DNA of 64,000 nt from an uncultured Chlorobiaceae bacterium (GTDB taxonomy: Bacteria > Bacteroidota > Ignavibacteria > UBA10030 > SZUA-254). The position numbers and the translations under genes were made by a program. Positions 1 to 35,684 of the stretch are shown piece after piece. Within the stretch, counting starts at the first letter, position 1. Every line of letters begins with the position of its first letter. Location: assembly GCA_964520905.1 (NCBI GenBank), contig CAZFQL010000007.1, forward strand, positions 39,603-103,602. Reading direction: 5' to 3'. Under the pieces are notes generated by a model. The model did not search any database and had not been told where the DNA came from. It worked only from the letters and a program-made list of their open reading frames with translations.

Positions 1-40
1 TTTTAAATCAACCGAAATACAAAGTATTTCGGGATATAAA

Positions 41-835: not shown

Positions 836-883
836 GAAAATAATCTCGAATTACATTAACTTTACAATAATATAGGAGTAAAT

Positions 884-3310: not shown

Positions 3311-3320
3311 TAAGTTTATT

Positions 3321-3416
3321 CCGTGGTGTCAGGTGTTTCCACCTGGCACAAACAAAGTTTTTCGGGTACATAGTTTGCAGTGTAAGTGTCAGGACGTAAG
3401 TCCTGCCACCACACCA
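3321..3416. promoter_or_regulatory. Compound stem-loop element between sppA and the first sensor-phosphatase gene
   Basis: Two inner perfect 6-bp hairpins: CAGGTG-tttc-CACCTG (3330-3345) and CAGGAC-gtaa-GTCCTG (~3390-3405). They are enclosed by an imperfect outer pairing GTGGTGTCAGG (3323-3333) / CCTGCCACCAC (3404-3414). No obvious T-run follows. Confidence 0.3.
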
Positions 3417-3478
3417 ATATTGAATTGCAATTTACTTCCTTTTTCCTATATTATTGCGTTCATAATGGATGATAAAAT

Positions 3479-6400
3479 ATGACTTCACAAAAAGAGACAA
3501 TATCGAAACGAAAGCTTATCTTCCGCTACTTGATTCTCACTATCATGACGTTAGCTCTTGCAGGCATTCTCACGACAGAGGTGTGGCTAAACGGTGCCTT
3601 CATCAACTACACACATCTTAAACCGAGGTTCAGTTCTGATTCAATGTGGTTCTCGTGTGACCTTGAAGATATTTTGGAAATACGAAAAATGGGAGGAATC
3701 CCAATCACAGCCATCGATTCGGTTGGAGAAGCCTTTCGCTCTGGATTGAGAGCAGGAGATTTCATCGTAGCAGTCAACGAACAGAAGCTCACCGAAGTAC
3801 CTCAAGCATTCTATCGACCGTTCATTGGTGCACGTGAAGGCGACGAAGTCAGGTACACGTTCATCAGAAATGGCATCACCCGTAATTGCACAATTCCTCT
3901 CGTTGATAATTTTCCAAAACCGAGAGGCTATCTTGGAACATACCGACGTTCACCATCCGATACGACCGGGGGATGGAAACGAGATACGACCTACGGTATT
4001 CGGATCGTAAAGGTTGTAGAAAATGCGCCGGCTGAAGCAGCCGGGCTCCAGGCGGGAGATATCATTGTGGGATTCAATGGCGGCCGTGTAACCAATGAGC
4101 AAGAATTCATGTGGCGCTATGATGCCACGGACGCATACCAAAAGGTGGACATTGAAGTAGTCAGAGAAGGGGTGCGGCAGACACTATACGCATCGTTGGG
4201 AGAGCGGCCTGAATATCGCGTCACTTTATGGAACTACATTATCGAAGGATCTGTTGCCAAGGTTGTTTGGATGCGCACGTTGCCATGGATCCTGTTTTAC
4301 TTTATCTTTCTCATTGTGGGTGCCACAATCGGCTGGTTGCGACCACGAGATGCAACTGCGTTCTTGTGCTCGCTGGTACTACTCGCAAGTGGCTTAGGCG
4401 CCGTACTGACTAATACATACTTTCTGGCGGCGTTGTCATATCAGGTCTTGTCACTCCTTGGTTGCTTCACAGAGACTGCGATCGGATTGGCTCTTCCCTT
4501 GGTACTGCATGCTTTTGCCAGGTTTCCGAACCGTTCACGAGGTGGTGAACGCCTTCTGCGTTGGAGGTGGGTTTTCTATGTGTATTCGTTCCTCTACATA
4601 ATCACGGCTTGTACAAAGTGGTTAACGATTATCCATGGATGGAAAGAAACTTGGCTTATACTGAATCCGGTAGCAAAGATTCTTGGTAATCTGAATGAAT
4701 GGGTCATGTCACCAATTGTTCTTGTGATGGTTGTATTATTTGTTGCGCAACGAATCGAGACACGAAACAAGCCACAATCGAGACTCAAAATAATTGAATT
4801 GGGTTTGATCCTGGCTATCGCGGGAATGAGTCTTTATCTTCTTGCACCACCTGTCTATGACTTCCTTCCAACATCATGGCAAGCCACATACTACTTTGCT
4901 GGATTGATATTTCCCATTATTCTATATACAGCACTCCCACTCGCATTTGCCTACACGATTCTCACCCGAAAAATATTCGATATCCGCTTCATCATCCGCA
5001 AAGGCCTCCGATATATTCTCTTATCAAAAGGCGCTTTGCTTGTTGAAGGCATAATTGTTTTTCTCATTGTCATTCAAATTCTCAGTTATGCCGGGACAGA
5101 GTTTCTTAATACACCCACAGCCGTCGGTGGTGTAGCAGTAGCAAGCACACTAGCGGTAATCGCATTCGTTGGAAGAGTCAATCGTAAGCTCATGCCGGTT
5201 ATTGACCGACGGTTCTTCCGTGAGGTGTTAGATGTAAAACGATTGCTAATGGAATTGAATGAAAAATTATCTGAGATGAGAGAACGTGAGAAGATTCTCC
5301 AACAAACTGCATCAACGGTGTTGAAGGCACTGCATCCTGCAAGAGTTGTGATGCTATTGAAGGAAGGGAAGAGTACAGAATTCAAATCAGTCCTTGCCAT
5401 TGAAAACGAGGAACGCAAATTCCAGCCATTTCATCATTCTAAACTTGGTTCGGAATCTGAACAAGGCAGCGCCCAGACCCTGAAACTAGTTCAGGGTGAC
5501 GCTTTATTGAAAGCAGACTATGCCATCATCAGCCAGATGGAAGAAAAAAAGGGCTGGGCAATTGTATATCCAGAAACACTTGATCTTGAAAAAGATGAGG
5601 ATAAGCGATTATCAGCGGTCAATTGTGAATTGTTAATTGGTTTGCGTGGAAGCTCCGGACTTATTGGAGTTATGGGGCTTGGAGATAAACTCTCCGAGGA
5701 ACCGTATAGCAAAGAAGATAGAGAGCTTCTTCTCACCGTTGCCCATGAGATGGGGATGGCGCTTGAAAATGCAGAGTTACTCGAAGTCGCAAAACGGGAA
5801 GCAGAGTTTTCAAAAGAGTTGGATATCGCTCGACAAGTTCAGCAGAATCTCTTTCCAAAGCAATTGCCAACTCCGTCGGGCTGGGAGTTTGCTGGCATCT
5901 GTAAACCCGCAAAAGCAGTTGGCGGAGATTACTACGACATCTTCGAGCCAGTCCCCGGCAAAGTAGTTGTAGCATTAGGTGATGTATCAGGCAAAGGACT
6001 TGGTGCTTCGTTTGTAATGTCGGGTGTACACAGCACTATCCGAACGCAAGCAAAAAAAATATTTGATAATCCGGTTGAAATAATTGATGAGTTAAACGAA
6101 TATCTAATCGGGTCTACATCTAAGAACATATTCGTTACTTTGTTTTTAGGAATCATCGATCTTGAAACCGGTCGAATGCGATACGTCAATTGCGGGCATC
6201 CACCGGCGTTTGTTGTTCGGAAAGAGAATGGTGAGATAGAGAAACTGACACGCACCGGACTTGCACTCGGCATGATGAACACTGTCCAGTTTACTCAAGG
6301 GTTATCGACATTGAATGTAGGTGATTCGCTCATAGTTTACAGCGATGGCATCACCGAAGCGATGAATTCAACAGAGGAAATGTACGAAGAGGAACGATTG

Positions 6401-6547
6401 ACTCAGTTGCTTACTACAACTCTTGGATTGGATACCTCACACATGATGGAAGCGATATTGAAATCTGTGAGTGAGTTTATTGGGCAGGCAGAACAGTCGG
6501 ATGATGTGTCAATCATTTTGACAAGAAGGAAATTGGAGAAAGAATGA
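3479..6547 (+). CDS. Membrane sensor phosphatase, paralog 1: N-terminal TM anchor, two periplasmic PDZ domains, ~7-8 TM helices, coiled-coil linker, GAF domain, PP2C (SpoIIE/RsbU-type) serine phosphatase
   Basis: 1022 aa. PDZ motifs GLRAGDFIVAVNEQ and GIRIVKVVENAPAEAAGLQAGDIIVGFNG. Multiple hydrophobic helices in residues ~260-530. C-terminal PP2C signature GDVSGKGLGASFVMS...FLGIIDL...CGHPP...IVYSDGITEA. Stop overlaps the start of the next gene (ATGA at 6544-6547). Confidence 0.8.
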   Translation: MTSQKETISKRKLIFRYLILTIMTLALAGILTTEVWLNGAFINYTHLKPRFSSDSMWFSCDLEDILEIRKMGGIPITAIDSVGEAFRSGLRAGDFIVAVNEQKLTEVPQAFYRPFIGAREGDEVRYTFIRNGITRNCTIPLVDNFPKPRGYLGTYRRSPSDTTGGWKRDTTYGIRIVKVVENAPAEAAGLQAGDIIVGFNGGRVTNEQEFMWRYDATDAYQKVDIEVVREGVRQTLYASLGERPEYRVTLWNYIIEGSVAKVVWMRTLPWILFYFIFLIVGATIGWLRPRDATAFLCSLVLLASGLGAVLTNTYFLAALSYQVLSLLGCFTETAIGLALPLVLHAFARFPNRSRGGERLLRWRWVFYVYSFLYIITACTKWLTIIHGWKETWLILNPVAKILGNLNEWVMSPIVLVMVVLFVAQRIETRNKPQSRLKIIELGLILAIAGMSLYLLAPPVYDFLPTSWQATYYFAGLIFPIILYTALPLAFAYTILTRKIFDIRFIIRKGLRYILLSKGALLVEGIIVFLIVIQILSYAGTEFLNTPTAVGGVAVASTLAVIAFVGRVNRKLMPVIDRRFFREVLDVKRLLMELNEKLSEMREREKILQQTASTVLKALHPARVVMLLKEGKSTEFKSVLAIENEERKFQPFHHSKLGSESEQGSAQTLKLVQGDALLKADYAIISQMEEKKGWAIVYPETLDLEKDEDKRLSAVNCELLIGLRGSSGLIGVMGLGDKLSEEPYSKEDRELLLTVAHEMGMALENAELLEVAKREAEFSKELDIARQVQQNLFPKQLPTPSGWEFAGICKPAKAVGGDYYDIFEPVPGKVVVALGDVSGKGLGASFVMSGVHSTIRTQAKKIFDNPVEIIDELNEYLIGSTSKNIFVTLFLGIIDLETGRMRYVNCGHPPAFVVRKENGEIEKLTRTGLALGMMNTVQFTQGLSTLNVGDSLIVYSDGITEAMNSTEEMYEEERLTQLLTTTLGLDTSHMMEAILKSVSEFIGQAEQSDDVSIILTRRKLEKE

Positions 6548-9303
6548 TTACACCGAGAGAAAATCCATCGCGCTGGACAATGGTGTTCCGGTACACAACC
6601 CTATCAATTTTGACGTTTTATATCTTAATTTGGTTAATAGTGTTTTTTAGTGAACAGGGGTTCGTGACATGCTCTACTGGTATTTCGTTAAGGGGCATTG
6701 AGAAAGAGAAACCCTTCGATTCCCTATCAGTGATTAGGAGTAAAGGATTTGTAATTGTGGAGAAAGTAGATTCCAATAGTATAGCAGAGAAGGCTGGTGT
6801 TTTTATTGGAGATACAATTGTTACGGTTGATGGAACTCAATTAAAAGATAAACCCCAATTGTTTTATAAAATTTGGACGAAATCTCCTTACGGCGACACG
6901 CTGAATATCGGATTAATAAAAAATGGTACGCAGGAGAATCGAGTTCTTGTCCTTGATAAGAAAGAAGGCATTTTATCTTATCTGACTTATAACTTCCAGG
7001 TTCTATTCTGGATTCTCAGCTTCGTTGTTGGTGGACTAATTGGATGGATGAGAACCAGGGACTCTATTGCCTTTCTATGTTCGGTTTTCTTCCTTTGCTT
7101 AGGGTTTAAGGAAGAGGTTTATTATTCATTGCTTCCATACTGGGCGATAGTAATTGTGATTACTTTAAATTCAATTACGGCGGCGATTGGTCTTCCGTTG
7201 GGTTTACGATTATTTTCGATCTTCCCAAATCCATCGCGTTTCGGTAAAGTATTGTGGCGATGGCAATGGGTTGCATTTCTGCTGTTTAGCCTCAACGCGT
7301 TTATACCTTATACTAAAAATCTCAGTGTATTGCTTGAGTGGTCAATTATAATACCATTGACTCAACAGGTGGCTCAAATGTTTGAACCGGTTGGAGCTGC
7401 ATTATTTGTTGCGTTGTTATTACTTATAATACCACTTTACCTTTCACAAAGAAAAGCGACTCGAGATCGTCCCCAGGCTCGACTGAAAATCATTGAGTTC
7501 AGCATTTTATTCTGGGGATTATCTGCATTAGCGGCGTTAGTTTTTGCTCTAATTGGGTCAATGTTACTAAAATCATTGGACGATATTCCCCGTCCGATTT
7601 CAGTGGTTTTATTGACTATTTTTATTTTCCCATTTTTGATCAGCATGCTCGCTATTCCAATCTCGTTTGCATACACAATCCTTACACGTAAAATCTTCGG
7701 TATCCGCTTCATCGTCAGGAAAGGTCTCCGATATCTTCTCCTATCCAAAGGTGCATTGCTTGTAGAAGGTATAATTGTTTTTTTCATCGTCATTCAAATC
7801 CTCAGTTATGCCGGAACAGAGTTTCTCAATTCACCCACCGCTGTAGGCGGTGTAGCAGTTGCAAGCACACTGGCAGTAATCGCAGTCGTCGGGAGAGTCA
7901 ACCGCAAACTCATGCCAGTTATCGATCGGCGATTCTTCCGTGAAGCTTTGGACGTGAGAAAGTTGTTGATGGATTTGAACGAACAATTATCTGAGCTTAG
8001 GGAGCGAGAAAAGATACTTCAGTTGACTGCTTCGACTGTTCTCAAAGCACTCCATCCATTACGAGTAGTGTTCTTGTTGAAAGAAGAAAAAGCAAAGCAT
8101 TTCAGATGTGTTCTCGTGCAGGAACATGAAGCGAAGCAAGCCCCATCTGGAAAGACAAATGGCCTAACCCGTCATTCTGAATTTATTTCAGAATCTCAAT
8201 CCCAGCCACTTGCCAGTGATGAGATGCCGAAACAAGTTCGGCATGACGATGTTAATTATTTGAAGTCAAATGATTCCATCATCCGTCAGTTAGAAGAAAA
8301 GAAATCCTACGTAACAATTTATCCCGAGAAACTCGACCCCGAAGTTGAAGGAGACAAACGATTACTCGATCTCAACTGTGAACTCTTCATCGGAGTTCAA
8401 GGAAGCGCAGGGCTCGTTGGCATCATGGCACTTGGCGGAAAACTCTCCGAAGAGCCATTCAGCAAAGAAGATCGAGATTTACTAACGACAGTTGCCCGAC
8501 AAATGGGACTTTCGCTGGAGAATGCAGAACTGTTGGAGGTTGCTAAGCGAGAAGCTGAGCAATCACGAGACCTGGAGATTGCGAGATCAGTACAACAAAA
8601 CCTTTTCCCAAAACAACTGCCGGTTGTTGCGGGCTGGGAATTTGCCGGCATCTGCAATCCGGCAAAAGCAGTCGGTGGAGATTACTACGATATCTTCGAA
8701 GCAGTGCCTGGGAAAGTAGTTGTGGCATTAGGTGATGTGTCGGGTAAAGGACTTGGGGCATCGTTCGTTATGTCGGGTGTTCACAGCACGATTCGAACGA
8801 ATGCAGAAAAATCATTCGACAATCCCGTCGGACTAATCAATGAGTTGAATAAATACCTTCTTGGATCGACATCGAAGAACATATTCGTTACTTTGTTTTT
8901 GGGAATCATCGATCTTGAAAGCGGTCGAATGCAATATGTCAATTGTGGCCACCCACCGGCGTTTGTTGTTCGGAAAGAGAATGGTGAAATAGAGAAGCTC
9001 ACACGCACCGGACTTGCACTCGGTATGATGAATACCATTCAGTTTACTCAAGGATCATCGACATTGAAAGCGGGTGATTCACTCATTGTCTACAGCGATG
9101 GTATCACTGAGGCGATGAATGAGAAAGAAGAATTTTTCGATGAAGAGCGTTTGGTGAAGGTTGTGAATACAGCATCGAAGTTGGAAGCTGCTTCAATGAT
9201 GGAAGAGATAATGAAATCGGTTAATAAGTTTGCAGGTACGCACGAGCAAGCTGACGATATTTCGGTTATTATTGCTCAACGACAGAAATCCATTTCTTCA
9301 TGA
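6544..9303 (+). CDS. Membrane sensor phosphatase, paralog 2 (PDZ–polytopic TM–GAF–PP2C)
   Basis: 919 aa. N-terminal TM, one PDZ (IAEKAGVFIGDTIVTVDG), polytopic TM region, then GAF/PP2C. The C-terminal ~400 aa are near-identical to the other paralogs. Confidence 0.8.
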   Translation: MITPRENPSRWTMVFRYTTLSILTFYILIWLIVFFSEQGFVTCSTGISLRGIEKEKPFDSLSVIRSKGFVIVEKVDSNSIAEKAGVFIGDTIVTVDGTQLKDKPQLFYKIWTKSPYGDTLNIGLIKNGTQENRVLVLDKKEGILSYLTYNFQVLFWILSFVVGGLIGWMRTRDSIAFLCSVFFLCLGFKEEVYYSLLPYWAIVIVITLNSITAAIGLPLGLRLFSIFPNPSRFGKVLWRWQWVAFLLFSLNAFIPYTKNLSVLLEWSIIIPLTQQVAQMFEPVGAALFVALLLLIIPLYLSQRKATRDRPQARLKIIEFSILFWGLSALAALVFALIGSMLLKSLDDIPRPISVVLLTIFIFPFLISMLAIPISFAYTILTRKIFGIRFIVRKGLRYLLLSKGALLVEGIIVFFIVIQILSYAGTEFLNSPTAVGGVAVASTLAVIAVVGRVNRKLMPVIDRRFFREALDVRKLLMDLNEQLSELREREKILQLTASTVLKALHPLRVVFLLKEEKAKHFRCVLVQEHEAKQAPSGKTNGLTRHSEFISESQSQPLASDEMPKQVRHDDVNYLKSNDSIIRQLEEKKSYVTIYPEKLDPEVEGDKRLLDLNCELFIGVQGSAGLVGIMALGGKLSEEPFSKEDRDLLTTVARQMGLSLENAELLEVAKREAEQSRDLEIARSVQQNLFPKQLPVVAGWEFAGICNPAKAVGGDYYDIFEAVPGKVVVALGDVSGKGLGASFVMSGVHSTIRTNAEKSFDNPVGLINELNKYLLGSTSKNIFVTLFLGIIDLESGRMQYVNCGHPPAFVVRKENGEIEKLTRTGLALGMMNTIQFTQGSSTLKAGDSLIVYSDGITEAMNEKEEFFDEERLVKVVNTASKLEAASMMEEIMKSVNKFAGTHEQADDISVIIAQRQKSISS

Positions 9304-9315
9304 AAGATCAGGTTG

Positions 9316-10815
9316 ATGAATACTTACATGGTTCGTAAAACATTAGTAGTTCTTTTTGTTGTCGTATTGGTGGTTGCGCGAGCACTTAGCCAGTCGCCGC
9401 ACATACCTGATTGGGCGCTCGTCCATACGAGAACGATGGAAGGAATCGATTCACTCTACAACTTCAAGTTCACTACCGCCGAAGCGAAGTTCAATGATGT
9501 TATTCGCATGGCACCGCAGGACCCGCGAGGATATTTTTTCAAGGCAATGATTTCCTACTATCGGTTTGAGTTCATGAGCGTTGAAACCGATTACGATCGC
9601 TTCATAGAACTTTCGGATTCAGTAATAGAAGTAGCTGAAAACGTCATCGACAACGATGAGAAGAACTCTGCCGCTCTTTTCTACCTTGGCGGAATTTACG
9701 GATACAGAGGAATTGTCAAGTCGGAAAAAGATGAAATCCTCTCCGCGGTTTGGGATGGGAAGAAAGGATACGGCTACCTGTGTGATGCGCTCGAAATCGA
9801 TCCAAAGAATTACGATGCCATGATGGGAGTCGGATTGTTCAACTACTATCTATCCAAAATACCCAAGGCATTTCGATGGATTGCCACCGCTATCGGTTTC
9901 GATGCAGATCGTGAATTAGGATTGAGGATGCTCGAACGGACTGCACGGAAGGGGACATACGCCCGGAACGAAGCACGATGGTGGCTTTCTCAATTTTACC
10001 AGTGGGAGGGTGAGACAGAGAAAGGAGTGCAATATCTCAAAGAATTGAGTGAGAGTTATCCGAACAATCCGTTCTATGTTCAAAGGTATGGTTATGCTCT
10101 CCTATTTTCGTTGCGCAGAGTAGATGAAGCAATTCCTGTGTTCAAGAAGTCAGTTTCCATGACAAACTGGGAAGCTCAACGATACATCACGCAAGGGTAC
10201 CATCGGCTTGGGCATTGCTATCGATTCAAGAGCGAGTACAAGGAGGCGATTGAGGCGTACACAAAGTTCATAACATCGGTCACATTAGATACAGCACAAC
10301 AGCTCTATGCTCATTATTGCATTGGCTTGTGCTACGAAATGATGGGAGATCGAGATTCGGCACTCCCATACTATCAGAAGTCGCCAGCATATGCTTCAGA
10401 ACGTCTGAAACAACCAATGAATGAGTACGACATTGAGTTTGAGAAAATGTCGAACTGGTTTAGTGCTGGATACTATACGAAGGGATTCGATGCAGGATTT
10501 GCTTTGCTCGCACGGAAGGATCTCACGGACGACCAACAGGGCAACATTCTATGGGAGATTGCTTCCACCTATTTTGAACAAAAAGACTACACGCAAGCTT
10601 CGAACAAGTACATGCAGGCCACGGGTTTGACTATCAAGAATAAATCGTGGATGCCGCCGTTTGCCTACTACCGACTTGGATTGTGCAACCTCCGGAATGG
10701 GCAGGAAGATTTGGCGAAGAAGGCATTTGAGAAGGCACTTGAGTTCGAGAAGTACGATAACGAAGAGTACATTCGGGAAGTCGTTGAGGAAGAGTTGGAT
10801 AAGATCAATGACTGA
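9316..10815 (+). CDS. Secreted tetratricopeptide-repeat (TPR) protein embedded in the sensor-phosphatase operon
   Basis: ~500 aa with an N-terminal signal peptide (LVVLFVVVLVVARALSQS). Helical repeat content with many W/Y/L TPR-like pairs (e.g. GHCYRFKSEYKEAIEAYTKF). ATG at 9316; the ORF track uses TTG at 9313. It starts 10 nt after paralog 2's stop and ends 10 nt before paralog 3's ATG. Confidence 0.6.
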   Translation: MNTYMVRKTLVVLFVVVLVVARALSQSPHIPDWALVHTRTMEGIDSLYNFKFTTAEAKFNDVIRMAPQDPRGYFFKAMISYYRFEFMSVETDYDRFIELSDSVIEVAENVIDNDEKNSAALFYLGGIYGYRGIVKSEKDEILSAVWDGKKGYGYLCDALEIDPKNYDAMMGVGLFNYYLSKIPKAFRWIATAIGFDADRELGLRMLERTARKGTYARNEARWWLSQFYQWEGETEKGVQYLKELSESYPNNPFYVQRYGYALLFSLRRVDEAIPVFKKSVSMTNWEAQRYITQGYHRLGHCYRFKSEYKEAIEAYTKFITSVTLDTAQQLYAHYCIGLCYEMMGDRDSALPYYQKSPAYASERLKQPMNEYDIEFEKMSNWFSAGYYTKGFDAGFALLARKDLTDDQQGNILWEIASTYFEQKDYTQASNKYMQATGLTIKNKSWMPPFAYYRLGLCNLRNGQEDLAKKAFEKALEFEKYDNEEYIREVVEEELDKIND

Positions 10816-10825
10816 GGAACCGAAA

Positions 10826-13531
10826 ATGCCACCGTTAACACAAAACCCATCGCGCTGGACAATGGTGTTTCGGTACGCCAGTCTTACGTTGCTGATGATC
10901 TACCTCACCAGCATGATCGTTTTTGTGTTCTGGATTGGAGGATTCAGCATGGGCAGGACAGGAATGAGGTTGGATAAAGACACGGTCGGAGTCTATGGCG
11001 TGCGGCAGTTGGTTCGAGAAAAGGGTGGTTTCACTATCATCAAGATTGATTCCGCAGGTGTCGCAGCAAAAGCGGGCATGCGAGTCGGAGATAAAATCAC
11101 AGCCGTGAATGGAGTTGAATTAAAGGATGATCCAACTGTGTATGATCGGGCAATAGTGCACGGAGAGATGCTCGTACAGGTGGCCGGTAATAAGGGTGAG
11201 ATGGAAGTATACCTAAACCTCCCTGTGAACGTAGTAATAGGGATTCCCTTGCTCACCGCCCTTGTTTCCTTATTTTTCTTAAGCGGATTATTGATCGGCT
11301 GGTTACGGCCGGCGGATAAGACTGCGTTCAACTGTTCGATCTTTCTCCTTGCATTCGCTGCAGGGTTGTGTGATGATTTTATCAAGTACTTACCACAGTG
11401 GGCGTGGGCTATCGCTATGTTATATTCCATGATCACCGAGGCACTGGTACCTCCCATGGCTATGCGGCTGTTTTCTGTTTTTCCGAATCCCTCACGATTA
11501 GGCAGATTCCTATCGAAATGGCAATGGACCTTCTTCCTGATCGCGGGTTTCATTGCCATGGTCGACTACGGAGGTAGATTTGCAGAATTGTATGAGTGGC
11601 AGTTTATCAGCCAAAGTAGGGAACTGCTTGATAGTTTTTACGGATACCTGACAGTTGTCTTCATCGTTACTGTGTGCTCACTCGGCATTGCTCTCTATTT
11701 CGCCCAGCGGATTGAGACGCGGGGTCGACCACATTCGCGTATCAAGGTGATAGAGCTTGGCTTTCTTTCATCACTGACTGCGATTTTGGTTCCGGTAGTA
11801 ATATATGCCGTCATTTACCTCTTTCAAGTCTCGATAGAACTAGAAGGAGTGTGGATTATCATTCTTATACTCTTGTTCTTTATTGCCCTCTCTGGAATTC
11901 CGGTCTCATTCGCTTACGCTATACTCTCGAGCAAGATATTCGGCATCCGCTTCATCCTCCGTAAAGGTCTCCAATATCTTTTCCTATCCAAAGGTGCGTT
12001 AGTTATCGAAGGCATAATCTTCTTCTTAATTCTGTATCAGATTATCAGTCATGGTGGAACTGCATTGGCAAGCTCACCAATGCTTGTGAGCGGCATCTCG
12101 TTTGGACTGGGAATCTTAGGAGTATTTACACTAAACCGAGTCAACCGCAAGCTCATGCCCGTCATCGATCGCCGCTTCTTTCGTGAAGTGTTAGATGTGA
12201 GAAAATTACTATTGGATTTGAATCAACAATTATCAGCTATCCGAGAGCGAGAACAGATACTTCAGCAAACAGCTAATACGGTTCTCAGAGCACTTCATCC
12301 AGCAAGAGTTGTGATGTTCTTGAAACATGGGAAATCTGATGAGCTCAGATGTGAATTAACACTTGAGAATGAACGAGCGAAGCCAACAACGCACAGCCCA
12401 ACCCGTCATCCTGAACTTGTTTCAGGATCTGAACCAAGCTCAGCCCAGATGCTGAACCCAGTTCAGCATGACGCGGGAATTGGTGGGATGTTGAAAACCG
12501 ATGATGCCATCATCAATCAAATGGAAGAAAAGAAAGGTTGGGTAATCGTTAACAGAGAAACACTTGATCTTGAAAAGGATGAAGATCAGCGATTATCAGC
12601 GGTCAATTGTGAATTGTTAATTGCCATTCGTGGAAGTTCAGGGCTTGTTGGTATTATGGGACTTGGCGGGAAACTCTCAGAAGAGCCATACAGCAAAGAA
12701 GATCGAGATTTACTAACGACAGTTGCCCGACAAATGGGACTTTCGCTGGAGAATGCAGAACTGTTGGAGGTTGCTAAGCGAGAAGCCGAGCAATCACGAG
12801 ACCTGGAGATTGCGAGATCAGTTCAACAAAACCTTTTTCCAAAACAACTGCCGGTTGTTGCGGGCTGGGAGTTTGCCGGCATCTGCAAACCAGCAAAAGC
12901 AGTCGGTGGAGATTACTACGATATCTTCGAAGCAGTGCGTGGGAAAGTAGTTGTAGCATTAGGCGATGTATCAGGTAAAGGACTCGGGGCTTCGTTTGTC
13001 ATGTCTGGAGTTCATAGCACGATTCGAACAAACGCAGAAAAATCAATCGATAATCCCGTTGTGCTAATCAATGAGTTGAATAAATATCTTCTAGGTTCAA
13101 CATCGAAGAACATTTTCGTCACTTTATTTTTGGGAATCATTGATCTTGAAACCGGCTTGATGAAATATGTCAATTGTGGACATCCACCTGCGTTTGTTGT
13201 TCGGAAAGAGAATGGTGAATTTGAAAAGCTCACCCGCACCGGACTTGCACTTGGTATGATGAACACCGTCCAGTTTACTCAAGGTTCATCAACATTGAAA
13301 GTAGGTGATTCTCTCATCGTCTACAGCGATGGCATCACCGAAGCGATGAATGAGAAAGAGGAAATGTACGAAGAGGAACGATTAACTCAGCTGCTCACTA
13401 CAACTCTTGGATTGGATACCTCACACATGATGGAAGCGATACTGAAATCAGTGAGTGAATTTATTGGACAAGCGGAACAGTCGGATGATGTGTCAATGAT
13501 TTTAGCGCGGAGAACAGAGGAGATATCATGA
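10826..13531 (+). CDS. Membrane sensor phosphatase, paralog 3 (PDZ–polytopic TM–GAF–PP2C)
   Basis: Start reassigned to ATG 10826 (MPPLTQNPSRWTMVFRY...), which aligns with the N-termini of paralogs 2 and 5. The track ORF from 10661 overlaps the TPR gene with a low-complexity extension. PDZ motif VAAKAGMRVGDKITAVNG. GAF/PP2C C-terminus conserved. Confidence 0.75.
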   Translation: MPPLTQNPSRWTMVFRYASLTLLMIYLTSMIVFVFWIGGFSMGRTGMRLDKDTVGVYGVRQLVREKGGFTIIKIDSAGVAAKAGMRVGDKITAVNGVELKDDPTVYDRAIVHGEMLVQVAGNKGEMEVYLNLPVNVVIGIPLLTALVSLFFLSGLLIGWLRPADKTAFNCSIFLLAFAAGLCDDFIKYLPQWAWAIAMLYSMITEALVPPMAMRLFSVFPNPSRLGRFLSKWQWTFFLIAGFIAMVDYGGRFAELYEWQFISQSRELLDSFYGYLTVVFIVTVCSLGIALYFAQRIETRGRPHSRIKVIELGFLSSLTAILVPVVIYAVIYLFQVSIELEGVWIIILILLFFIALSGIPVSFAYAILSSKIFGIRFILRKGLQYLFLSKGALVIEGIIFFLILYQIISHGGTALASSPMLVSGISFGLGILGVFTLNRVNRKLMPVIDRRFFREVLDVRKLLLDLNQQLSAIREREQILQQTANTVLRALHPARVVMFLKHGKSDELRCELTLENERAKPTTHSPTRHPELVSGSEPSSAQMLNPVQHDAGIGGMLKTDDAIINQMEEKKGWVIVNRETLDLEKDEDQRLSAVNCELLIAIRGSSGLVGIMGLGGKLSEEPYSKEDRDLLTTVARQMGLSLENAELLEVAKREAEQSRDLEIARSVQQNLFPKQLPVVAGWEFAGICKPAKAVGGDYYDIFEAVRGKVVVALGDVSGKGLGASFVMSGVHSTIRTNAEKSIDNPVVLINELNKYLLGSTSKNIFVTLFLGIIDLETGLMKYVNCGHPPAFVVRKENGEFEKLTRTGLALGMMNTVQFTQGSSTLKVGDSLIVYSDGITEAMNEKEEMYEEERLTQLLTTTLGLDTSHMMEAILKSVSEFIGQAEQSDDVSMILARRTEEIS

Positions 13532-16410
13532 ATTCTTCAATAGATACCATATCGAAACGAACACTTGTATTTCGTTGCTCATTAGTTGCATTGCTAACGG
13601 TAATTCTTACCTTCATTGTTATTCATTGGATTTGGTCACTCGATGCTTTCCCTAAGTTCTTAAGTAATCAGAGTGCGTTAGGTTTAAATTACATCCGAAG
13701 TCCTGGTGATACTTCAATGCTGTTTGGGAACATTTATGAGATTAATTCAATACGGAAAAATGGTGGTTTGACCGTTGCTTCTGATATTGATTCATCCGTT
13801 CTAGCTTTTCAGTGGGGAATTAGACCGGGTGACAAGATTACCGCAATTAATGGAATATCGCTTCAAGAAAATCCAAAAGTATTTTATCGCGCATTCTCTA
13901 AAAAAGCCAAGGGCCAAAAATTAGAAATTAAATTCATCCGCGATGGTATCGTCTCACAAATCGAGAGTTCTTTTGCAATTCCTGATTCTTTAATGAAGTG
14001 GGGTGGACAGGGGTCATGGGCATTTTCAGTTGGAAATGTCAAAGGTGTCTATACATTCGATACGTTCAGATTAGTTGCTGATACTCCCTACCTTTTTCTC
14101 TCTATTCTCCTATTGCTCGTTGGTTGTATTATTGGTTTGTTGAAACCGAGTAATTCGGTCGCATTTCAAATCTCCATTCTTTTTCTCCTCTTAGGATGTA
14201 TGGCGAATAGTATGCAATTTGATTGGTTCCGCCTTAGTGCAATTTTGCCTGCCTGGTTATTGATAACTACATTTGCTGCTTTCGCGCTTGCTCATGGAAT
14301 CGGTATACCTCTGTTATTGCGTGTTCTCTCAGTGTTTCCAAATCCGACAAGACTGGGAAGATTATTTCTCCGATTTCAGTGGATAGCCTTCATCTTTTTT
14401 CTTACTCCCGCAATTATCGAATTCTCACCAAAATTAGTTAACCTGCTCGGATTGGACATAAATTTGTTCGATTCAATCTTCATAGAGTGGGTACACAAAT
14501 TCGATAATTGGCTCTTGTTATTTGCCTTAATTGTAGGTTTGGCGTTACTCATCTCTCAACATATTGAAACGCGGCATAGACATGAATACCGGCTTAAAAT
14601 TATAGAATTCTCTTTTCTTATTGGTTTGCTTGGCGTTGTCTTATATTATGTTGCCCTTTATGTATTTAGTAGAGCCAACATAAGTCTGTCCCAAAATATG
14701 GCAAACATCATTGTTGTATTATGGAATTTCACGCCCACACTCGCTGTTGGTACTATACCGCTCGCTGTAACGTACACCATAATAACCCGTAAGATATTTG
14801 ACATTAAGTTCATCATCCGCAAAGGTCTGCAATACCTGCTTTTATCCAAAGGAGCGTTGGTCATAGAAGGCATCATCGTCTTCCTGGTCGTTTTTCAAGT
14901 CATCACGCACGGAGGAGAGAACATCGCAGGTTCACCATTTGCTGTGAGTAGTTTGTCAGTAGGAAGTACATTAGCGGTCATCTTTGTTCTTGGGAAAGTC
15001 AATCGCAAAGTCATGCCCGCCATTGATCGGCGTTTCTTCCGTGAAGTGTTGGATGTGAGAAAATTACTTTTGGATTTGAATCAACAAATATCAGCTATCC
15101 GAGAGCAGGAGGAGATACTTCAGCAAACAGCTAATACCATTCTTAGGACACTCCATCCGGCAAGAGTTGTGATGTTCTTGAAACATGGGAAGTCTGATGA
15201 GTTCAGATGTGAATTGACACTTGAAAATGAACGAGCGAAGCCAACCCAACCACGTCATGCTGAACTCGTTTCAGCATCCATACCAAGCAACGTTCAGATC
15301 CCGAACCACCTGCCCGCCGCTTCGCTTATGCAGGCGGGAGTTCGGAATGACGGCTTAGTGAGTGGGATGCTCAAGACTGATGATACCATTATCAAACAGT
15401 TGGAAGAAAAAAAAGGCTGGGTAATCGTCTATCCAGAAACACTTGATCTTGAAAAGGATGAGGATCAGCGATTATCAGCGGTCAATTGTGAATTGTTGAT
15501 TGGCTTGCGTGGAAGCTCGGGACTGATAGGAGTAATGGGCCTCGGAGATAAACTCTCGGAAGAACCATACAGCAAAGAAGATCGAGAGCTTTTGCTTACC
15601 GTTGCCCATGAGATGGGGATGGCACTTGAAAATGCGGAGTTGCTCGAAGTCGCGAAACGAGAAGCAGAATTTTCAAAAGAACTGGATATCGCTCGACAAG
15701 TTCAGCAGAATCTCTTTCCAAAGCAATTGCCAACGCCATCGGGGTGGGAGTTTGCCGGCATCTGTAAACCAGCCAAAGCAGTCGGTGGAGATTATTACGA
15801 CATCTTCGAGGCGGTACCGGGGAAAGTGGTTATTGCATTGGGTGATGTATCGGGTAAAGGACTTGGGGCCTCGTTTGTTATGTCGGGTGTTCACAGCACG
15901 ATTCGAACAAACGCAGAAAAGTCAATCGACAATCCCGTCGGGCTAATCAATGAGTTGAATAAATATCTGCTCGAATCGACATCGAAGAACATATTTGTTA
16001 CTTTGTTTTTTGGAATCATCGATCTTGAAACAGGAAAACTCTGCTACGTTAATTGCGGGCATCCACCAGTGTTAGTTGTTCGGAAAGTGAATGGTGAAAT
16101 AGAGAAGCTCACACGCACCGGACTTGCACTCGGTATGATGAACACCGTTCAGTTTACTCAAGGGACATCGACATTGAAAGCAGGTGATTCGCTCATTGTT
16201 TACAGCGATGGCATAACCGAAGCGATGAATGAAAAGAATGAGGAGTATGAGGAAGAAAAATTGATTAAATTGCTCAATGAAGGAATAGGATTAGATACTT
16301 CTCAAATGATGGAAGAAATACTGAAATCGGTAAGTGATTTTATCGGGCAAGCGGAGCAGTCGGATGATGTGTCGATCATTTTAACACGAAGGAAATTGGA
16401 GACAGGATGA
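13528..16410 (+). CDS. Membrane sensor phosphatase, paralog 4 (PDZ–polytopic TM–GAF–PP2C)
   Basis: 960 aa. ATGA start/stop overlap with paralog 3. Divergent N-terminal periplasmic/TM region (PDZ-like GIRPGDKITAINGISL). Conserved C-terminal GAF+PP2C. Confidence 0.8.
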   Translation: MNSSIDTISKRTLVFRCSLVALLTVILTFIVIHWIWSLDAFPKFLSNQSALGLNYIRSPGDTSMLFGNIYEINSIRKNGGLTVASDIDSSVLAFQWGIRPGDKITAINGISLQENPKVFYRAFSKKAKGQKLEIKFIRDGIVSQIESSFAIPDSLMKWGGQGSWAFSVGNVKGVYTFDTFRLVADTPYLFLSILLLLVGCIIGLLKPSNSVAFQISILFLLLGCMANSMQFDWFRLSAILPAWLLITTFAAFALAHGIGIPLLLRVLSVFPNPTRLGRLFLRFQWIAFIFFLTPAIIEFSPKLVNLLGLDINLFDSIFIEWVHKFDNWLLLFALIVGLALLISQHIETRHRHEYRLKIIEFSFLIGLLGVVLYYVALYVFSRANISLSQNMANIIVVLWNFTPTLAVGTIPLAVTYTIITRKIFDIKFIIRKGLQYLLLSKGALVIEGIIVFLVVFQVITHGGENIAGSPFAVSSLSVGSTLAVIFVLGKVNRKVMPAIDRRFFREVLDVRKLLLDLNQQISAIREQEEILQQTANTILRTLHPARVVMFLKHGKSDEFRCELTLENERAKPTQPRHAELVSASIPSNVQIPNHLPAASLMQAGVRNDGLVSGMLKTDDTIIKQLEEKKGWVIVYPETLDLEKDEDQRLSAVNCELLIGLRGSSGLIGVMGLGDKLSEEPYSKEDRELLLTVAHEMGMALENAELLEVAKREAEFSKELDIARQVQQNLFPKQLPTPSGWEFAGICKPAKAVGGDYYDIFEAVPGKVVIALGDVSGKGLGASFVMSGVHSTIRTNAEKSIDNPVGLINELNKYLLESTSKNIFVTLFFGIIDLETGKLCYVNCGHPPVLVVRKVNGEIEKLTRTGLALGMMNTVQFTQGTSTLKAGDSLIVYSDGITEAMNEKNEEYEEEKLIKLLNEGIGLDTSQMMEEILKSVSDFIGQAEQSDDVSIILTRRKLETG

Positions 16411-19121
16411 TACCATCGAAAGACACCCCATCACCCCGTACAATGGCGTTTCGTTACGCCAGTCTTACGTTGCTGACGATCTACCTCACCAGTATGATCG
16501 TTTTCGTAATCTGGATTGGAGGAGTCACTACTGGGTCTCCGGGGATGAGGTTGGATAAAGACACGGTCGGAGTCTATGGCGTGCGGAAGTTGATTCGAGA
16601 AAACGGTGGTTTCACTATCATCAAGGTTGATTCAGCAAGAGTCGCAGCGAAAGCCGGGCTTAGAGTCGGTGACAAGATCGTAGCCGTGGATAGTGTGGAG
16701 ATCAAGGAAGATCCAAGAATATACGATCTGGTATTGGCGCGGGCTAAGATGCAAGTGCGAGTGGAAAGGAGTGGACACACTGAGGAAGTTGCTCTGGTCA
16801 TGGAGGATAATTATTTGGAAATCGGAGTTTTCCTCCTGCCTGTTTTCTTCATTGTTGGGGCATTGATTGGCTGGCTCCGACTGGGCAATTCAGCTGCATT
16901 CGAATGTGCGATCTTTTTCCAATGCATCGCCGCCGCGTCGTGCGATGTATGTTTTCAATATTTACCCGATTGGGGATTAGTCATCGGAACGATTTATTCC
17001 ATGACAAGCAAAGCTCTGTGGTTGCCTATGGGTGTGAGAGTATTCTCCGTCTTTCCGAATCCTTCACGGTTCGGTAGGTTTTTGTGGAAATGGCAATGGA
17101 TCTTCTTTCTTGTCCCCGGTCTGCTTGCGCTGATTAATTATACTGATAACTTCGCCCGCCTGTTCGGATGGCAGGCAGTCATCCAGATTATTGACCCGCT
17201 GAACAGATTTGCCGGAAACGGATACGTCATCTTTGTGGGTGTTGTTTGTGTGCTCGGAATCGCTTTGTTCGTTTCACAGCGTAAAGAGACACGCGACAGT
17301 CCGCAAACAAGGATAAAAGTGATCGAGTTCGGGTTTCTTACATCCGCGATAGCATTTGGCATGTGCCTCGTTGGAATTGCAATCTTTCTTATCTCTGGTT
17401 TGTCGACCCCTATTAGTGATGACAGTGGAGTCATTGTGAAGGTTATGTTTCTCACCATGATGCTCGGCTTAATTGTTGGGCTCTTTGCTATTCCGTTCTC
17501 CTTTGCATACGCTCTACTTGCGAGTAAGATATTCGGCATTAAGTTCATCGTTCGGAAAGGTCTGCAATATCTCTTCTTATCCAAAGGTGCGTTAGTCATA
17601 GAAGGTATTATTCTCTTTTTAATTCTGTATCAAATTATCAGTCATGGTGGAACTACATGGGCAAGCTCACCAATGCTCGTAAGCGGATTATCGTTTGGAC
17701 TTGGAATCTTAGGAGTATTTACACTAAACCGAGTCAACCGTAAACTCATGCCTGCCATCGACCGACGGTTCTTCCGCGAAGCGTTGGACGTGAGAAAGTT
17801 GTTAATGGATTTGAACGAACAATTATCTGAGTTACGGGAACGAGAAAAGATACTTCAGTTGACTGCTTCGACTGTTCTCAAAGCACTCCATCCAGCCAGA
17901 GTGATGATGCTATTGAAACATGGAAAGTCTGATGAATTCAGATGTGAATTAACAATTGAAGATAAGCGAGTGAAACTTACTCAACCAGAGCAATCCAGTC
18001 CTACCCGTCATGCTGAACTCGTTTCAGCATCTATACAAAGCAACGTTCAGATCCCGAACCGAGTTCGGGATGACGCTGGGGGCGGGTTTGTATTGAAAGC
18101 TGAGGATTCCATCATCAAACAGTTGGAAGAAAAGAAGGGTTGGGCAATCGTCTATCCCGAAAAACTCAACCCCGAAGTTGAAGGAGACAAACGATTACTC
18201 GATCTTGACTGCGAACTTTTCATCGCAATTCAAGGAAGCGCAGGACTCGTTGGTATCATGGCACTTGGCGGAAAACTCTCAGAAGAGCCATTCAGCAAAG
18301 AAGATCGAGATTTACTAACGACAGTTACCCGACAAATGGGACTTTCGCTGGAGAATGCAGAACTGTTGGAGGTTGCTAAGCGAGAAGCCGAGCAATCACG
18401 AGACCTGGAGATTGCGAGATCAGTACAACAAAACCTCTTTCCAAAACAACTGCCGGTTGTTGCGGGCTGGGAGTTTGCCGGCATCTGTAATCCAGCAAAA
18501 GCTGTTGGCGGTGATTACTACGATATCTTCGAGGCAGTCCCCGGAAAAGTAGTTGTAGCGTTAGGGGATGTGTCGGGTAAAGGACTTGGTGCTTCGTTTG
18601 TAATGTCGGGTGTGCATGGCTCTATCCGCACTCGTGTTACTTCATGTATTAATGAACCTTTAAAATTAATCGAAGAGCTTAATGCTTACCTTTTATCATC
18701 AACAGCTAAAAATATCTTTGTCACTCTTTTCTTCGGTATCATAGACCTTGAAACAGGAAAACTCAGCTACGTTAATTGTGGGCATCCACCTGCAATTGTG
18801 ATTCGACAAGAAGGGAATCAACAAGAACGGCTTACGCGAAACGGACCCGGACTTAGCATGATTGCCGGCGCTCGTTTCACTCAAGGAGGATGCCTATTAC
18901 AGAATGGCGATACAATTGTAATTTACAGTGATGGTGTAACTGAAGCAAAGAATAACCAGGAGGAAATGTATGAGGAAGAACGATTATCCGAATTATTGAA
19001 CAATGCATCGGGATTAGAAGCCACGGCAATTATGGACAAAATACTGAAGTCAGTTGATAGATTTGCTTTAGGAGCTGAACAAGCGGATGATATCTCGGTG
19101 ATTGTGGTAAGGAGATGCTGA
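16407..19121 (+). CDS. Membrane sensor phosphatase, paralog 5 (PDZ–polytopic TM–GAF–PP2C)
   Basis: 904 aa. ATGA overlap with paralog 4. The N-terminus resembles paralog 3 (RTMAFRYASLTLLTIYLTSMIVFV). The PP2C domain is the most divergent of the five (GIRTRVTSCINEPL...AIVIRQEGNQQERLTRNGPGLSMIAG). Confidence 0.8.
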   Translation: MIPSKDTPSPRTMAFRYASLTLLTIYLTSMIVFVIWIGGVTTGSPGMRLDKDTVGVYGVRKLIRENGGFTIIKVDSARVAAKAGLRVGDKIVAVDSVEIKEDPRIYDLVLARAKMQVRVERSGHTEEVALVMEDNYLEIGVFLLPVFFIVGALIGWLRLGNSAAFECAIFFQCIAAASCDVCFQYLPDWGLVIGTIYSMTSKALWLPMGVRVFSVFPNPSRFGRFLWKWQWIFFLVPGLLALINYTDNFARLFGWQAVIQIIDPLNRFAGNGYVIFVGVVCVLGIALFVSQRKETRDSPQTRIKVIEFGFLTSAIAFGMCLVGIAIFLISGLSTPISDDSGVIVKVMFLTMMLGLIVGLFAIPFSFAYALLASKIFGIKFIVRKGLQYLFLSKGALVIEGIILFLILYQIISHGGTTWASSPMLVSGLSFGLGILGVFTLNRVNRKLMPAIDRRFFREALDVRKLLMDLNEQLSELREREKILQLTASTVLKALHPARVMMLLKHGKSDEFRCELTIEDKRVKLTQPEQSSPTRHAELVSASIQSNVQIPNRVRDDAGGGFVLKAEDSIIKQLEEKKGWAIVYPEKLNPEVEGDKRLLDLDCELFIAIQGSAGLVGIMALGGKLSEEPFSKEDRDLLTTVTRQMGLSLENAELLEVAKREAEQSRDLEIARSVQQNLFPKQLPVVAGWEFAGICNPAKAVGGDYYDIFEAVPGKVVVALGDVSGKGLGASFVMSGVHGSIRTRVTSCINEPLKLIEELNAYLLSSTAKNIFVTLFFGIIDLETGKLSYVNCGHPPAIVIRQEGNQQERLTRNGPGLSMIAGARFTQGGCLLQNGDTIVIYSDGVTEAKNNQEEMYEEERLSELLNNASGLEATAIMDKILKSVDRFALGAEQADDISVIVVRRC

Positions 19122-19400
19122 TTGTGTCGCTCCTCTGGAGCTTTCCTGCTTTATTGACTTGTGCTACAAACATTTCGCTCCTACGGAGCTAATAACAAAA
19201 TATTTTTACTACATGAGTCCCGTAGGGACGAAACGTATATAGAAATAATAAACGAAATATATTAAGCTCCGTCAGTCCAAAGGACTCCTTTGAAGGAGCG
19301 AGACAAAATAGGAAATATGATTTCAGCTTGTGCTATAAATGTTGCGCTCCTACGGAGCTTTCATTCGATGATGATTTATAGGAGTCCCGTAGGGACGAGA
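19122..19400. repeat. Cluster of REP-like GC-stem hairpins upstream of the RAYT gene
   Basis: Repeated units: GCTCC-TCT-GGAGC (19128-19140); CGCTCC-TAC-GGAGCT (19176-19190 and 19345-19359); GAGTCCC-GTA-GGGACGA (19215-19231 and 19382-19398); AAGCTCCGTCAGTCCAAAGGACTCCTTTGAAGGAGCGA (19264-19301). All are short perfect palindromes. The loops carry GTAG/CTAC. Confidence 0.7.
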
Positions 19401-19468
19401 TGTTTATAGTATAGTATAAAAAAATAATCAAGCTCCATTAGATGCGAAACCATATAAGGATTGATTCT

Positions 19469-19942
19469 ATGGCAAACACATACACACAAATATACATACA
19501 TATTGTTTTTTCTGTACATGGTCGCCAGAGTCTGATTAAAACGGAATGGAAAGAACGATTGCATAAATATCTCACTGGGATCGTTAAGAACGAGAAGCAA
19601 AAGTTAATTGTGATAAATAGTATGCCCGACCATATTCATCTTCTCATTGGTATGAAACCAGATATTGCCCTATCGGATTTGATACGAGATATTAAGTCAA
19701 ATTCATCGAAGTTTATCAACGAACAACGGCTAACGCGAGGAAGATTCAATTGGCAAGAAGGATTCGGTGCTTTTTCAAATTCCCACTCACAATTGGATAC
19801 AGTGATACGATATATTCAGAATCAAGAACGACATCATGCTAAGAAAACATTCCGTCAAGAATATTTAGAGATGCTGAAGAAATTCACAATAGATTATAAC
19901 GATAAATATGTCTTCGAATGGATTGAAGGAACAAATGATTAA
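19469..19942 (+). mobile_element. IS200/IS605-family Y1 (HUH) transposase, REP-associated tyrosine transposase (RAYT/TnpA_REP)-like
   Basis: ~157 aa from ATG 19469 (MANTYTQIYIHIVFSVHGRQSLI...); an alternative upstream start lies at 19442. HUH motif MPDHIHLLIG. Size and motif order are typical of IS200 TnpA/RAYT. Flanked on both sides by REP-like hairpin clusters. No TnpB gene. Confidence 0.75.
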
Positions 19943-20150
19943 TTGTGCCGCTCCTCTGGAGCTTTTTCCTCTGATTTGGTTGGTTCTATCGACATCTCGC
20001 TCCTACGGAGCTGTTATGCGATGATAATAAAGTACCGTTCGGGACGAAATGTTTTGAGCCAAAGGCTCATGCACCTCTGGCGCAATAGAAAAATAATAGA
20101 AGATAAAATAAGCTCCGTCAGTCCAAAGGACTCCTTTGGAGGAGCGAAAC
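19941..20150. repeat. Second cluster of the same REP-like hairpins downstream of the RAYT gene
   Basis: ATTGTGCCGCTCCTCTGGAGCTTT (19942-19965), CGCTCCTACGGAGCT (19998-20012), the variant TACCGTTCGGGACGAAA (~20033-20047), and AAGCTCCGTCAGTCCAAAGGACTCCTTTGGAGGAGCGA (20110-20147). These are the same unit types as in 19122-19400. Confidence 0.7.
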
Positions 20151-20244
20151 TTACATCCTAAATCATAAATCTTATTTCCTGAATCTTCCATCATCAATCC
20201 TACATCCTTGTATCAATCTCTCTATTTGGTTATATTAAATCACC

Positions 20245-33831: not shown

Positions 33832-33876
33832 CTGTTGATTTCTCTCCTCTGAAACTGAGACACCCCACAAATTTGC

Positions 33877-35680: not shown

Positions 35681-35684
35681 CATA

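Follow-up and report, generated by a model that had tools for sequence, protein, structure and literature searches.

The stretch of DNA analyzed here, 64 kb of contig CAZFQL010000007.1 and referred to as the window, contains an array of membrane-spanning sensor phosphatases at positions 3479–19121 of the + strand. The array consists of six co-directional open reading frames (ORFs), five of which encode sensor phosphatases (P1, P2, P4, P5 and P6) and one a secreted tetratricopeptide repeat (TPR) protein. P1 (3479–6547, 1022 residues) comprises a first transmembrane helix (TM1), two periplasmic PDZ domains (residues ~60–150 and 163–245), nine further transmembrane helices (~262–565), a GAF domain and a PP2C domain at residues 827–1017, corresponding to positions 5957–6529. 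P2 (6544–9303, 919 residues) has TM1, one PDZ domain (47–136), nine transmembrane helices (143–468), a GAF domain and PP2C at residues 723–913 (8710–9282). It is followed by the TPR gene (9316–10815, 499 residues from an ATG start, with an in-frame TTG at 9313) and by P4 (10808–13531, 907 residues; PP2C at 12941–13513), P5 (13528–16410, 960 residues; PP2C at 15820–16392) and P6 (16407–19121, 904 residues; PP2C at 18543–19115 by Pfam), all on the + strand. The ORF coordinates confirmed the close packing of the six genes reported in a first-pass annotation of this DNA, with 4-nt ATGA start/stop overlaps present at 6544, 13528 and 16407. An 8-nt overlap (ATGACTGA) joins the stop of the TPR gene to the start of P4, and the gap between P2 and the TPR gene measures 9–12 nt. 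For P4, the ORF lister proposed a TTG start at 10661, which falls within the TPR gene and was rejected in favor of the ATG at 10808. This packing with its start/stop overlaps argues for a single transcript with translational coupling. A terminator scan revealed no convincing internal terminator within the array, and no Rfam family reached its gathering score anywhere in the window. A sigma-70 promoter scan returned fewer sites than in shuffled sequence and was uninformative, promoters of the Fibrobacteres–Chlorobi–Bacteroidetes (FCB) type not being covered by the scan.

The SpoIIE/PP2C family (PF07228) matched all five phosphatases at E-values of about 1e-49 (6.4e-49 for P1, 6.9e-49 for P4), with 165–170 bits versus a cut-off of 25. 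In the alignment, the aspartate motifs (V)GGDYYD, GDVSGKG, (Y)SDG and (S/A)DD are invariant in 5/5 paralogues, and D264, D267 and D282 (fragment numbering) are invariant in a wider alignment. As judged from this full set of PP2C aspartate motifs the catalytic site is intact, and Mn/Mg-dependent phosphatase activity is predicted. An AlphaFold model of P6 residues 440–904 (predicted local distance difference test score, pLDDT, 80.4) showed a GAF-like α/β domain, a 47-residue linker helix and the PP2C domain, the latter matching the folds of RssB (3f79; E 5e-15, TM-score on target 0.76–0.80), SpoIIE (5ucg), Rv1364c (3ke6) and SiaA (6k4e; 0.85 on target). Sequence relatives of the PP2C domain likewise include SpoIIE, the RsbU-type Rv1364c and RssB. 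Pfam, the aspartate motifs and the model fold thus bear out the initial assignment of a SpoIIE/RsbU-type PP2C domain to all five proteins, which we place as inner-membrane sensors in the SpoIIE/RsbU branch of the PPM (PP2C) family of Ser/Thr phosphatases.

At the amino-terminal side, PDZ domains (PF13180, PF17820, PF00595) passed the gathering score in P1 (67.9 bits; PDZ_2 at 9.8e-19 over two stretches), P2 (35.7 bits), P4 (31.7 bits, PDZ_6) and P6 (29.4/27.9 bits). For P5 the score of 24.2 bits was just below the cut-off of 27, but the region aligns with the PDZ domains of the other paralogues. In the AlphaFold model of P2, residues 47–136 form a β-sandwich with two helices, for which the nearest solved folds are the PDZ domains of AlgW, DegP, DegQ, DegS and CtpA, including the CtpA–LbcA complex (PDB ID: 8sxg). 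The NCBIfam models of DegS, RseP and DegP matched the PDZ region only, far below their family cut-offs. The likeness to DegS/RseP drawn in the first-pass annotation therefore holds in that the domains are of the HtrA/DegS type by sequence and fold. A G-hydrophobic-x-hydrophobic stretch (KGFVIV, GGFTII, YGIRIV) aligns at the expected position of the carboxylate-binding loop and represents a candidate site for binding C-terminal peptides.

Hydropathy analysis combined with the positive-inside rule placed a K/R-rich amino-terminal tail inside, followed by TM1, an external segment of 95–230 residues harboring the PDZ domain, and nine helices with alternating K/R-rich loops. P5 exhibited the cleanest pattern of ten transmembrane helices with K/R-rich inside loops, and the AlphaFold model of P2 residues 1–475 (pLDDT 78.5; membrane part ~90) yielded the same helix count. 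By these in silico predictions, ten helices with the amino terminus inside place PDZ outside and PP2C inside, on opposite faces of the membrane. Pfam, hydropathy and the model thus agree with a membrane anchor and periplasmic PDZ domain preceding a polytopic module, for which the 6–8 helices given previously were an undercount, as nine follow TM1. We are highly confident in the resulting architecture: an inward amino terminus and TM1, periplasmic PDZ, a nine-helix bundle, a juxtamembrane helix, GAF, a linker of ~47 residues, and PP2C. The most conserved motifs of the family described below sit in the bundle (FPNPS, QRxETR, PLSFAY, RKGLQYLLLSKG and IDRRFFRE), the last of which is carried by the juxtamembrane helix. 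No Pfam family matched the membrane module. Membership in 7TMR-DISM_7TM, one of the suggested checks, was rejected, as none of the five proteins yielded a match at E ≤ 0.01. The likeness of the bundle to solved seven-helix G-protein-coupled receptors (GPCRs) is topological only, at 3–12% identity.

Scoring 1.84 billion representative proteins with a profile built on the nine-helix module yielded a family of 389 clusters (50% identity) at E ≤ 1e-3, 106 of them at E ≤ 1e-10. Most members are ~900 residues long with the module at residues ~140–450. Scanning one genome per species, we identified at least 454 loci with the membrane module, mostly in Acidobacteriota (Blastocatellia, Terriglobia, Bryobacterales) and also in Eisenbacteria and Gemmatimonadota. 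Word-indexed searches with the P2 sensor half and full-length P1 gave six matches each, missed relatives found by the profile and were not used for family size. In a spread sample of 53 members, 45 carried SpoIIE and 47 GAF_3 (E ≤ 1e-3), six carried Pkinase and two HisKA_3 with HATPase. Pfam recognized PDZ in only 17 of the same 53 proteins; of the 129 members in which at least 90 residues precede the module, 125 were assigned a PDZ-like domain by an iterated profile seeded on the PDZ domains of the window. The coupling of PDZ, membrane module, GAF and PP2C is thus conserved across the family, indicating a functional unit. The source annotations use generic labels ("RsbU", "SpoIIE family protein phosphatase"), and in the open-access literature we found no description of PDZ fused to SpoIIE, RsbU or PP2C. 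The architecture is therefore that of a widespread yet un-named family, whose PP2C, PDZ and GAF parts are familiar and whose combination is undescribed. The first-pass view that PDZ-coupled phosphatases are rarely discussed accordingly stands for the searchable literature, although the architecture itself is not rare; that they might belong to an already-characterised family found no counterpart beyond the SpoIIE/RsbU phosphatase labels.

Stand-alone membrane proteins of ~410 residues from metagenomes (P0156–P0248) contain the module as well; they share its motifs including the juxtamembrane IDRRFYRRKYDA and have no Pfam annotation, suggesting a broader un-named sensor family. Hydrophobic bias as the cause of these matches was dropped, since local alignment shows common motifs, and the stand-alone relatives were added to deepen the AlphaFold alignment.

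Neighborhoods were compared for 80 of the at least 454 loci, covering up to 10 kb on each side for tandem copies. Such copies are rare, as only 3/80 loci have two or more members in this range. Two close relatives were found, one in an uncultured Chlorobiaceae (L001) and one in Ignavibacteria (L002), the latter with a single P1-like gene. The genes of L001 run from a P1 orthologue (69% identity) through an unrelated pair of secreted genes to the TPR gene (78%), followed by a P6-like phosphatase (60%) and MsbA (82%). This order indicates that both the pairing with TPR and the location of the array immediately upstream of msbA are lineage traits. The increase beyond two copies, to five, is particular to this genome, and the five-copy array is a lineage-specific elaboration. 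The two secreted genes of L001 (2348–7988) are paralogous β-propeller-repeat genes with type IX secretion C-terminal tails, inserted after the P1 orthologue and before the TPR gene, where the window has P2.

The halves of the five phosphatases have diverged to very different extents. Identities were 30–45% among the sensor halves and 80–95% among the output halves, with the exception of P4 and P6, whose amino-terminal halves are ~80% identical in nucleotide sequence. Synonymous divergence (dS) was mostly above 0.5 and saturated in the sensor half, indicating that, P4/P6 excepted, the paralogues are not recent copies. The ratio of non-synonymous to synonymous substitution rates (dN/dS) was ~0.1 in the output half, a sign of strong purifying selection, whereas the PDZ domain of the youngest pair gave 0.43. 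Tracts of 95–98% nucleotide identity switch partners along the genes, pairing P1 with P2 and P4 with P6 before the GAF loop, P2 with P4 and P6 and P1 with P5 after it, and P1 with P4 at the 3′ end. These switches indicate repeated gene conversion. A diverged sensor half joined to a homogenised output half, as documented by identities, dN/dS and conversion tracts, points to many inputs and one output.

The loop at which the partners change contains an in-frame double-hairpin repeat in each of the five genes, on the + strand at 5432–5501 in P1 (70 nt, partly decayed), 8170–8248 in P2 (79 nt), 12404–12473 in P4 (70 nt), 15253–15352 in P5 (100 nt, including an additional 30-nt hairpin nested inside) and 18006–18075 in P6 (70 nt). 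The length differences among the copies are multiples of three. The element is bounded by terminal inverted repeats (CGTCAT...ATGACG), contains two hairpins of the form CAT-N-CTGAA...TTCAG-N-AT and is translated as RHAELVSAS...QVRxD. Over 21 stem pairs, 95% of cells pair, versus 28–43% with the partner column slid, and four stem pairs show compensatory changes between copies. The P6 insert appears in the AlphaFold model as a disordered loop between GAF strands. By Pfam (PF01590, PF13185, PF13492) only P4 exceeds a GAF cut-off (PF01590, 25.1 versus 22.4), the other scores of 16–26 bits lying below, probably because the repeat insert sits in the GAF loop. The assignment of a GAF domain to all five proteins, made in the first-pass annotation, thus passes the Pfam threshold in P4 only, but is supported by the GAF_3 matches of the sampled relatives and by the GAF-like domain of the model.

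The repeat is present in P0009 and in the P1 orthologue of L001, and missing from the close relatives L002/P0007 and P0010–16. No other copy of the hairpin motif was found in the window, and none in the 80 related genome loci. A metagenome scan returned at least 120 stretches; among the matches listed, 14 complete double-hairpin copies measure 62–98 nt and none lies in a long ORF, suggesting a common intergenic repeat resembling repetitive extragenic palindromic (REP) sequences or transposable elements of the miniature inverted-repeat type (MITEs) that here sits in frame. Rickettsia palindromic elements (RPEs) are a precedent for palindromic repeats in frame within genes. With these and with MITE/REP elements the array repeat shares a normally intergenic short palindrome inside a coding sequence, a kept frame and an added surface loop; it differs in its sequence family (GTCAT-N-CTGAA...TTCAG-N-AT), in its recurrence at one site of all five tandem paralogues and in its co-varying stems. 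It thus provides a clean case of an intergenic repeat tolerated within a signalling domain.

The TPR protein carries a Sec-type signal peptide (MNTYMVRKTLVVLFVVVLVVARALSQ), and TPR_2/TPR_8/TPR_1 and Iml2-TPR_39 matched above cut-off, in line with the secreted TPR protein that had been noted within the operon. Its L001 orthologue occupies the same position, directly upstream of a phosphatase gene. Translational coupling to P4, conservation in L001 and secretion suggest a role as partner of the phosphatases.

The surroundings of the array are envelope-related. Upstream lie an ORF resembling an outer-membrane protein (OMP; 41–835), two genes ahead of the array, without a Pfam match and ending in ...GVKYYF, and an SppA-type signal peptide peptidase of the S49 family (884–3310, + strand; Peptidase_S49 at 5.5e-68). 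The aromatic C-terminus of the former is of the kind that DegS-type PDZ domains recognise. Downstream, an MsbA-like ABC exporter (20245–22068, + strand; Pfam ABC_membrane and ABC_tran), the counterpart of the gene after the P6-like phosphatase in L001, is accompanied by a GT22 enzyme, a sulfatase-family enzyme, GtrA, a Wzy_C ligase and a GT4 enzyme. Genes for STAS, RsbW-type or sigma factors were found nowhere in the window (Pfam on 30 ORFs, other ORFs read), as had been noted for STAS and anti-sigma substrates at the outset. The linkage of an RsbU–RsbV–RsbW partner-switching module was likewise absent: ~10 kb of extra flanks of the same organism contained no STAS, RsbW-type or sigma-factor gene, and neither STAS nor RsbW recurred among the neighbors at the 80 loci. 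When these neighbors were clustered, no partner recurred, nine loci being the most that any cluster covered, and the recurrent small neighbor ORFs, which were read as sequence and not Pfam-scanned, showed no resemblance to STAS or RsbW. The lack of a local partner suggests that the substrate is encoded elsewhere.

Based on the architecture, the divergence of the paralogues and the envelope-related neighbors, we infer that the array serves multi-input envelope sensing. Each PDZ domain would bind a different periplasmic ligand, likeliest exposed protein C-termini, or else a partner presented by the TPR protein in the way NlpI does for Prc and LbcA for CtpA. Binding would alter the membrane bundle and, through the juxtamembrane helix and GAF, the helical linker, which would govern how active a PP2C dimer is, in keeping with proposals for RsbU-type enzymes. 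All five phosphatases would dephosphorylate one phosphoprotein encoded elsewhere, by default a STAS-type anti-anti-sigma factor, so that the array would act as a device with several inputs and one output reporting the state of the envelope without proteolysis. A mechanism based on a coiled-coil linker and a PPM dimer has been described for RsbU-type phosphatases, as has a GAF–linker–PPM arrangement in general-stress-response phosphatases (PMC12143880). The long GAF–PP2C linker helix of the P6 model fits this mechanism. We hold the scheme of PDZ input and a single substrate tentatively, at somewhat short of an even chance; architecture and mechanism taken together are our best explanation and, on balance, probably correct.

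The array shares features with several known systems without coinciding with any of them. With RsbU/RsbP/SpoIIE-type phosphatases, such as C. difficile RsbZ (which has GAF domains), P. aeruginosa RssB and M. tuberculosis Rv1364c, it has in common the PP2C aspartate motifs and the order GAF, long helix, PP2C. These known examples are soluble or have only PAS, REC, HAMP or GAF inputs, whereas the array proteins combine periplasmic PDZ with a nine-helix bundle and lack adjacent cognate STAS or kinase genes. In P. aeruginosa SiaA a signal at the outer face likewise controls a cytoplasmic PP2C, and Chlamydia RsbU is a membrane-anchored PP2C sensor with a periplasmic sensor domain. Both differ from the array proteins in having one or two transmembrane helices and HAMP or Cache-like sensors, without PDZ, polytopic bundle or GAF. 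DegS, AlgW, RseP, Prc–NlpI and CtpA–LbcA share the periplasmic HtrA-type PDZ, and Prc–NlpI and CtpA–LbcA also the pairing of a PDZ protein with a periplasmic TPR protein, but DegS/RseP-type sensors join PDZ to a protease. No protease domain was detected by Pfam in the array proteins, whose output would be dephosphorylation. A local likeness was observed to PrsK (TIGR02916), a polytopic GAF-containing histidine kinase that belongs to PEP-CTERM/exosortase systems and has the TPR protein PrsT as its partner. P2 residues 366–539 matched model positions 200–371 (E 3e-8) and P5 residues 315–572 matched positions 121–365, covering the last membrane helices, the juxtamembrane segment and GAF; the TPR protein matched the PrsT model weakly. 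Membership in PrsK was rejected, the scores of 21–33 bits being local and far from the cut-off of 300, and a kinase domain being absent. The output is HisKA/HATPase in PrsK and PP2C in the array, no exosortase genes lie near the array, and PrsK is not known to have a PDZ domain.

Several points weigh against the proposed mechanism. Pfam scores GAF only weakly in the window proteins, and most family members in the 80 loci have no TPR gene beside them. A Ser/Thr kinase (6/53) or histidine kinase (2/53) can replace PP2C, so that the module is not tied to one pathway. With STAS and RsbW missing nearby, a partner-switching output is assumed from the PP2C subfamily only. The bundle, as the best-conserved part of the sensor by alignment, could itself be the ligand site. 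In addition, exact look-ups of P1, P2, P5 and P6 in assemblies retrieved no record, and full-length P2, P5 or P6 occur in no independent one, so that the interior of the array is unconfirmed by a second assembly.

The foremost alternative concerns the output, in that the phosphatases would not feed a STAS/anti-sigma switch and would instead counteract Hanks-type Ser/Thr kinases or have a substrate other than a STAS protein, SiaC-like or otherwise. The missing STAS/RsbW genes, in the window as well as recurrently beside relatives, and the coupling of Pkinase to the same sensor are consistent with this, as is the presence of SiaA, a membrane PP2C with a non-STAS substrate, among the closest folds. 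However, the nearest relatives by sequence and fold include SpoIIE, the RsbU-type Rv1364c and RssB, and substrates of partner switches are often not encoded next to their phosphatases. The GAF–linker–PPM arrangement is moreover that of the general-stress-response phosphatases (PMC12143880). We consider such a different output rather unlikely.

Slightly less probable still, and in our view unlikely, is that the membrane bundle rather than PDZ is the sensor, with a GPCR-like bundle whose ligand would be a small hydrophobic molecule such as a lipid or a lipid-linked intermediate, and PDZ serving only oligomerisation, localisation or docking of the TPR protein. The most conserved motifs indeed reside in the bundle, which occurs without PDZ in the ~410-residue stand-alone proteins; the local similarity to the PrsK model is limited to the membrane and GAF regions, and genes for lipid A/lipopolysaccharide export and O-antigen are among the neighbors. 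Against this, PDZ is kept in nearly all full-length family members (the 125 of 129 given above) and is among the parts most diverged between the paralogues, as expected for a specificity determinant and not for a passive scaffold, while the GPCR likeness does not extend beyond topology.

That part of the array is an assembly artefact, the repeated C-terminal halves having given chimeric joins so that copy number or mosaic would not be biological, is very improbable: although L001 as the closest relative holds only two copies, full-length P2, P5 and P6 lack an independent record, and independent short-read contigs end exactly where the repeated cytoplasmic half begins (window positions 5633 and 10993), five genes must exist to account for five differing amino-terminal halves, all reading frames are intact with the low dN/dS given above, and the start/stop overlaps are regular across the array. 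The same contigs equal window positions 1–5633 and 9003–10993 at 100% identity, the second covering the end of P2, the TPR gene and the start of P4, which indicates that the SppA–P1 and P2–TPR–P4 junctions are not artefacts. P1 is furthermore 100% identical to P0249, a protein of a 176-kb NCBI contig. Some of the mosaic joins could be assembly chimeras, whereas the five distinct sensor halves cannot.

If PDZ is the true input, as in the mechanism we favor, the proteins would constitute a non-proteolytic counterpart of DegS/RseP, in which PDZ reads periplasmic proteins and drives a phosphatase switch directly. The hosts of the family (Acidobacteriota, Eisenbacteria, Gemmatimonadota and Ignavibacteria-like bacteria) are abundant in soil and sediment and their signalling is almost unstudied. 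Naming the membrane module, which is shared with kinases and stand-alone proteins, would improve the annotation of hundreds of "SpoIIE family phosphatase" genes, and the five-copy array offers a natural experiment with one output and five sensor halves. A more far-reaching combination, to which we give only a small chance, is that PDZ and the nine-helix bundle form an undescribed class of transmembrane receptors that read periplasmic C-termini, possibly presented by TPR, and signal without proteolysis to phosphatase, Ser/Thr-kinase or histidine-kinase outputs. Here it would form a five-channel sensor of envelope quality with its output half kept uniform by gene conversion, and the in-frame repeat might be retained for its nucleic-acid structure, as a recombination or RNA-level element homogenising or regulating the array.

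Further repeats were observed around the array. The segment upstream of P1 (3311–3478) contains two related hairpins, GTGTCAGGTG-TTTC-CACCTGGCAC and GTGTCAGGAC-GTAA-GTCCTGCCAC, which could constitute a separate repeat family or, following sppA, a structure with a regulatory or terminator role. Directly after the array, in the interval 19121–20245, lies an IS200/Y1-type transposase gene (19442–19942), possibly a REP-associated RAYT. Short GC-rich hairpin repeats (GCTCCTACGGAGC, GTCCCGTAGGGAC and GCTCCTCTGGAGC), whose sequence is unlike that of the in-frame repeat, border this gene on either side. Farther downstream, positions 34973–40080 form a possible small island of unusual AT and GC skew with a SocA/Panacea antitoxin-domain gene (34973–35680), a 221-residue ORF and a 1115-residue ORF, the last two without a Pfam or PADLOC match; PADLOC gave only a marginal DarG match for this island. 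Finally, a 45-nt inverted repeat (33710–33840; 78% complementary, arms 41 nt apart) with hairpins of the CCTCTCCTACGAGGAGAGG type is located between two minus-strand genes and adjoins an M50 peptidase gene.

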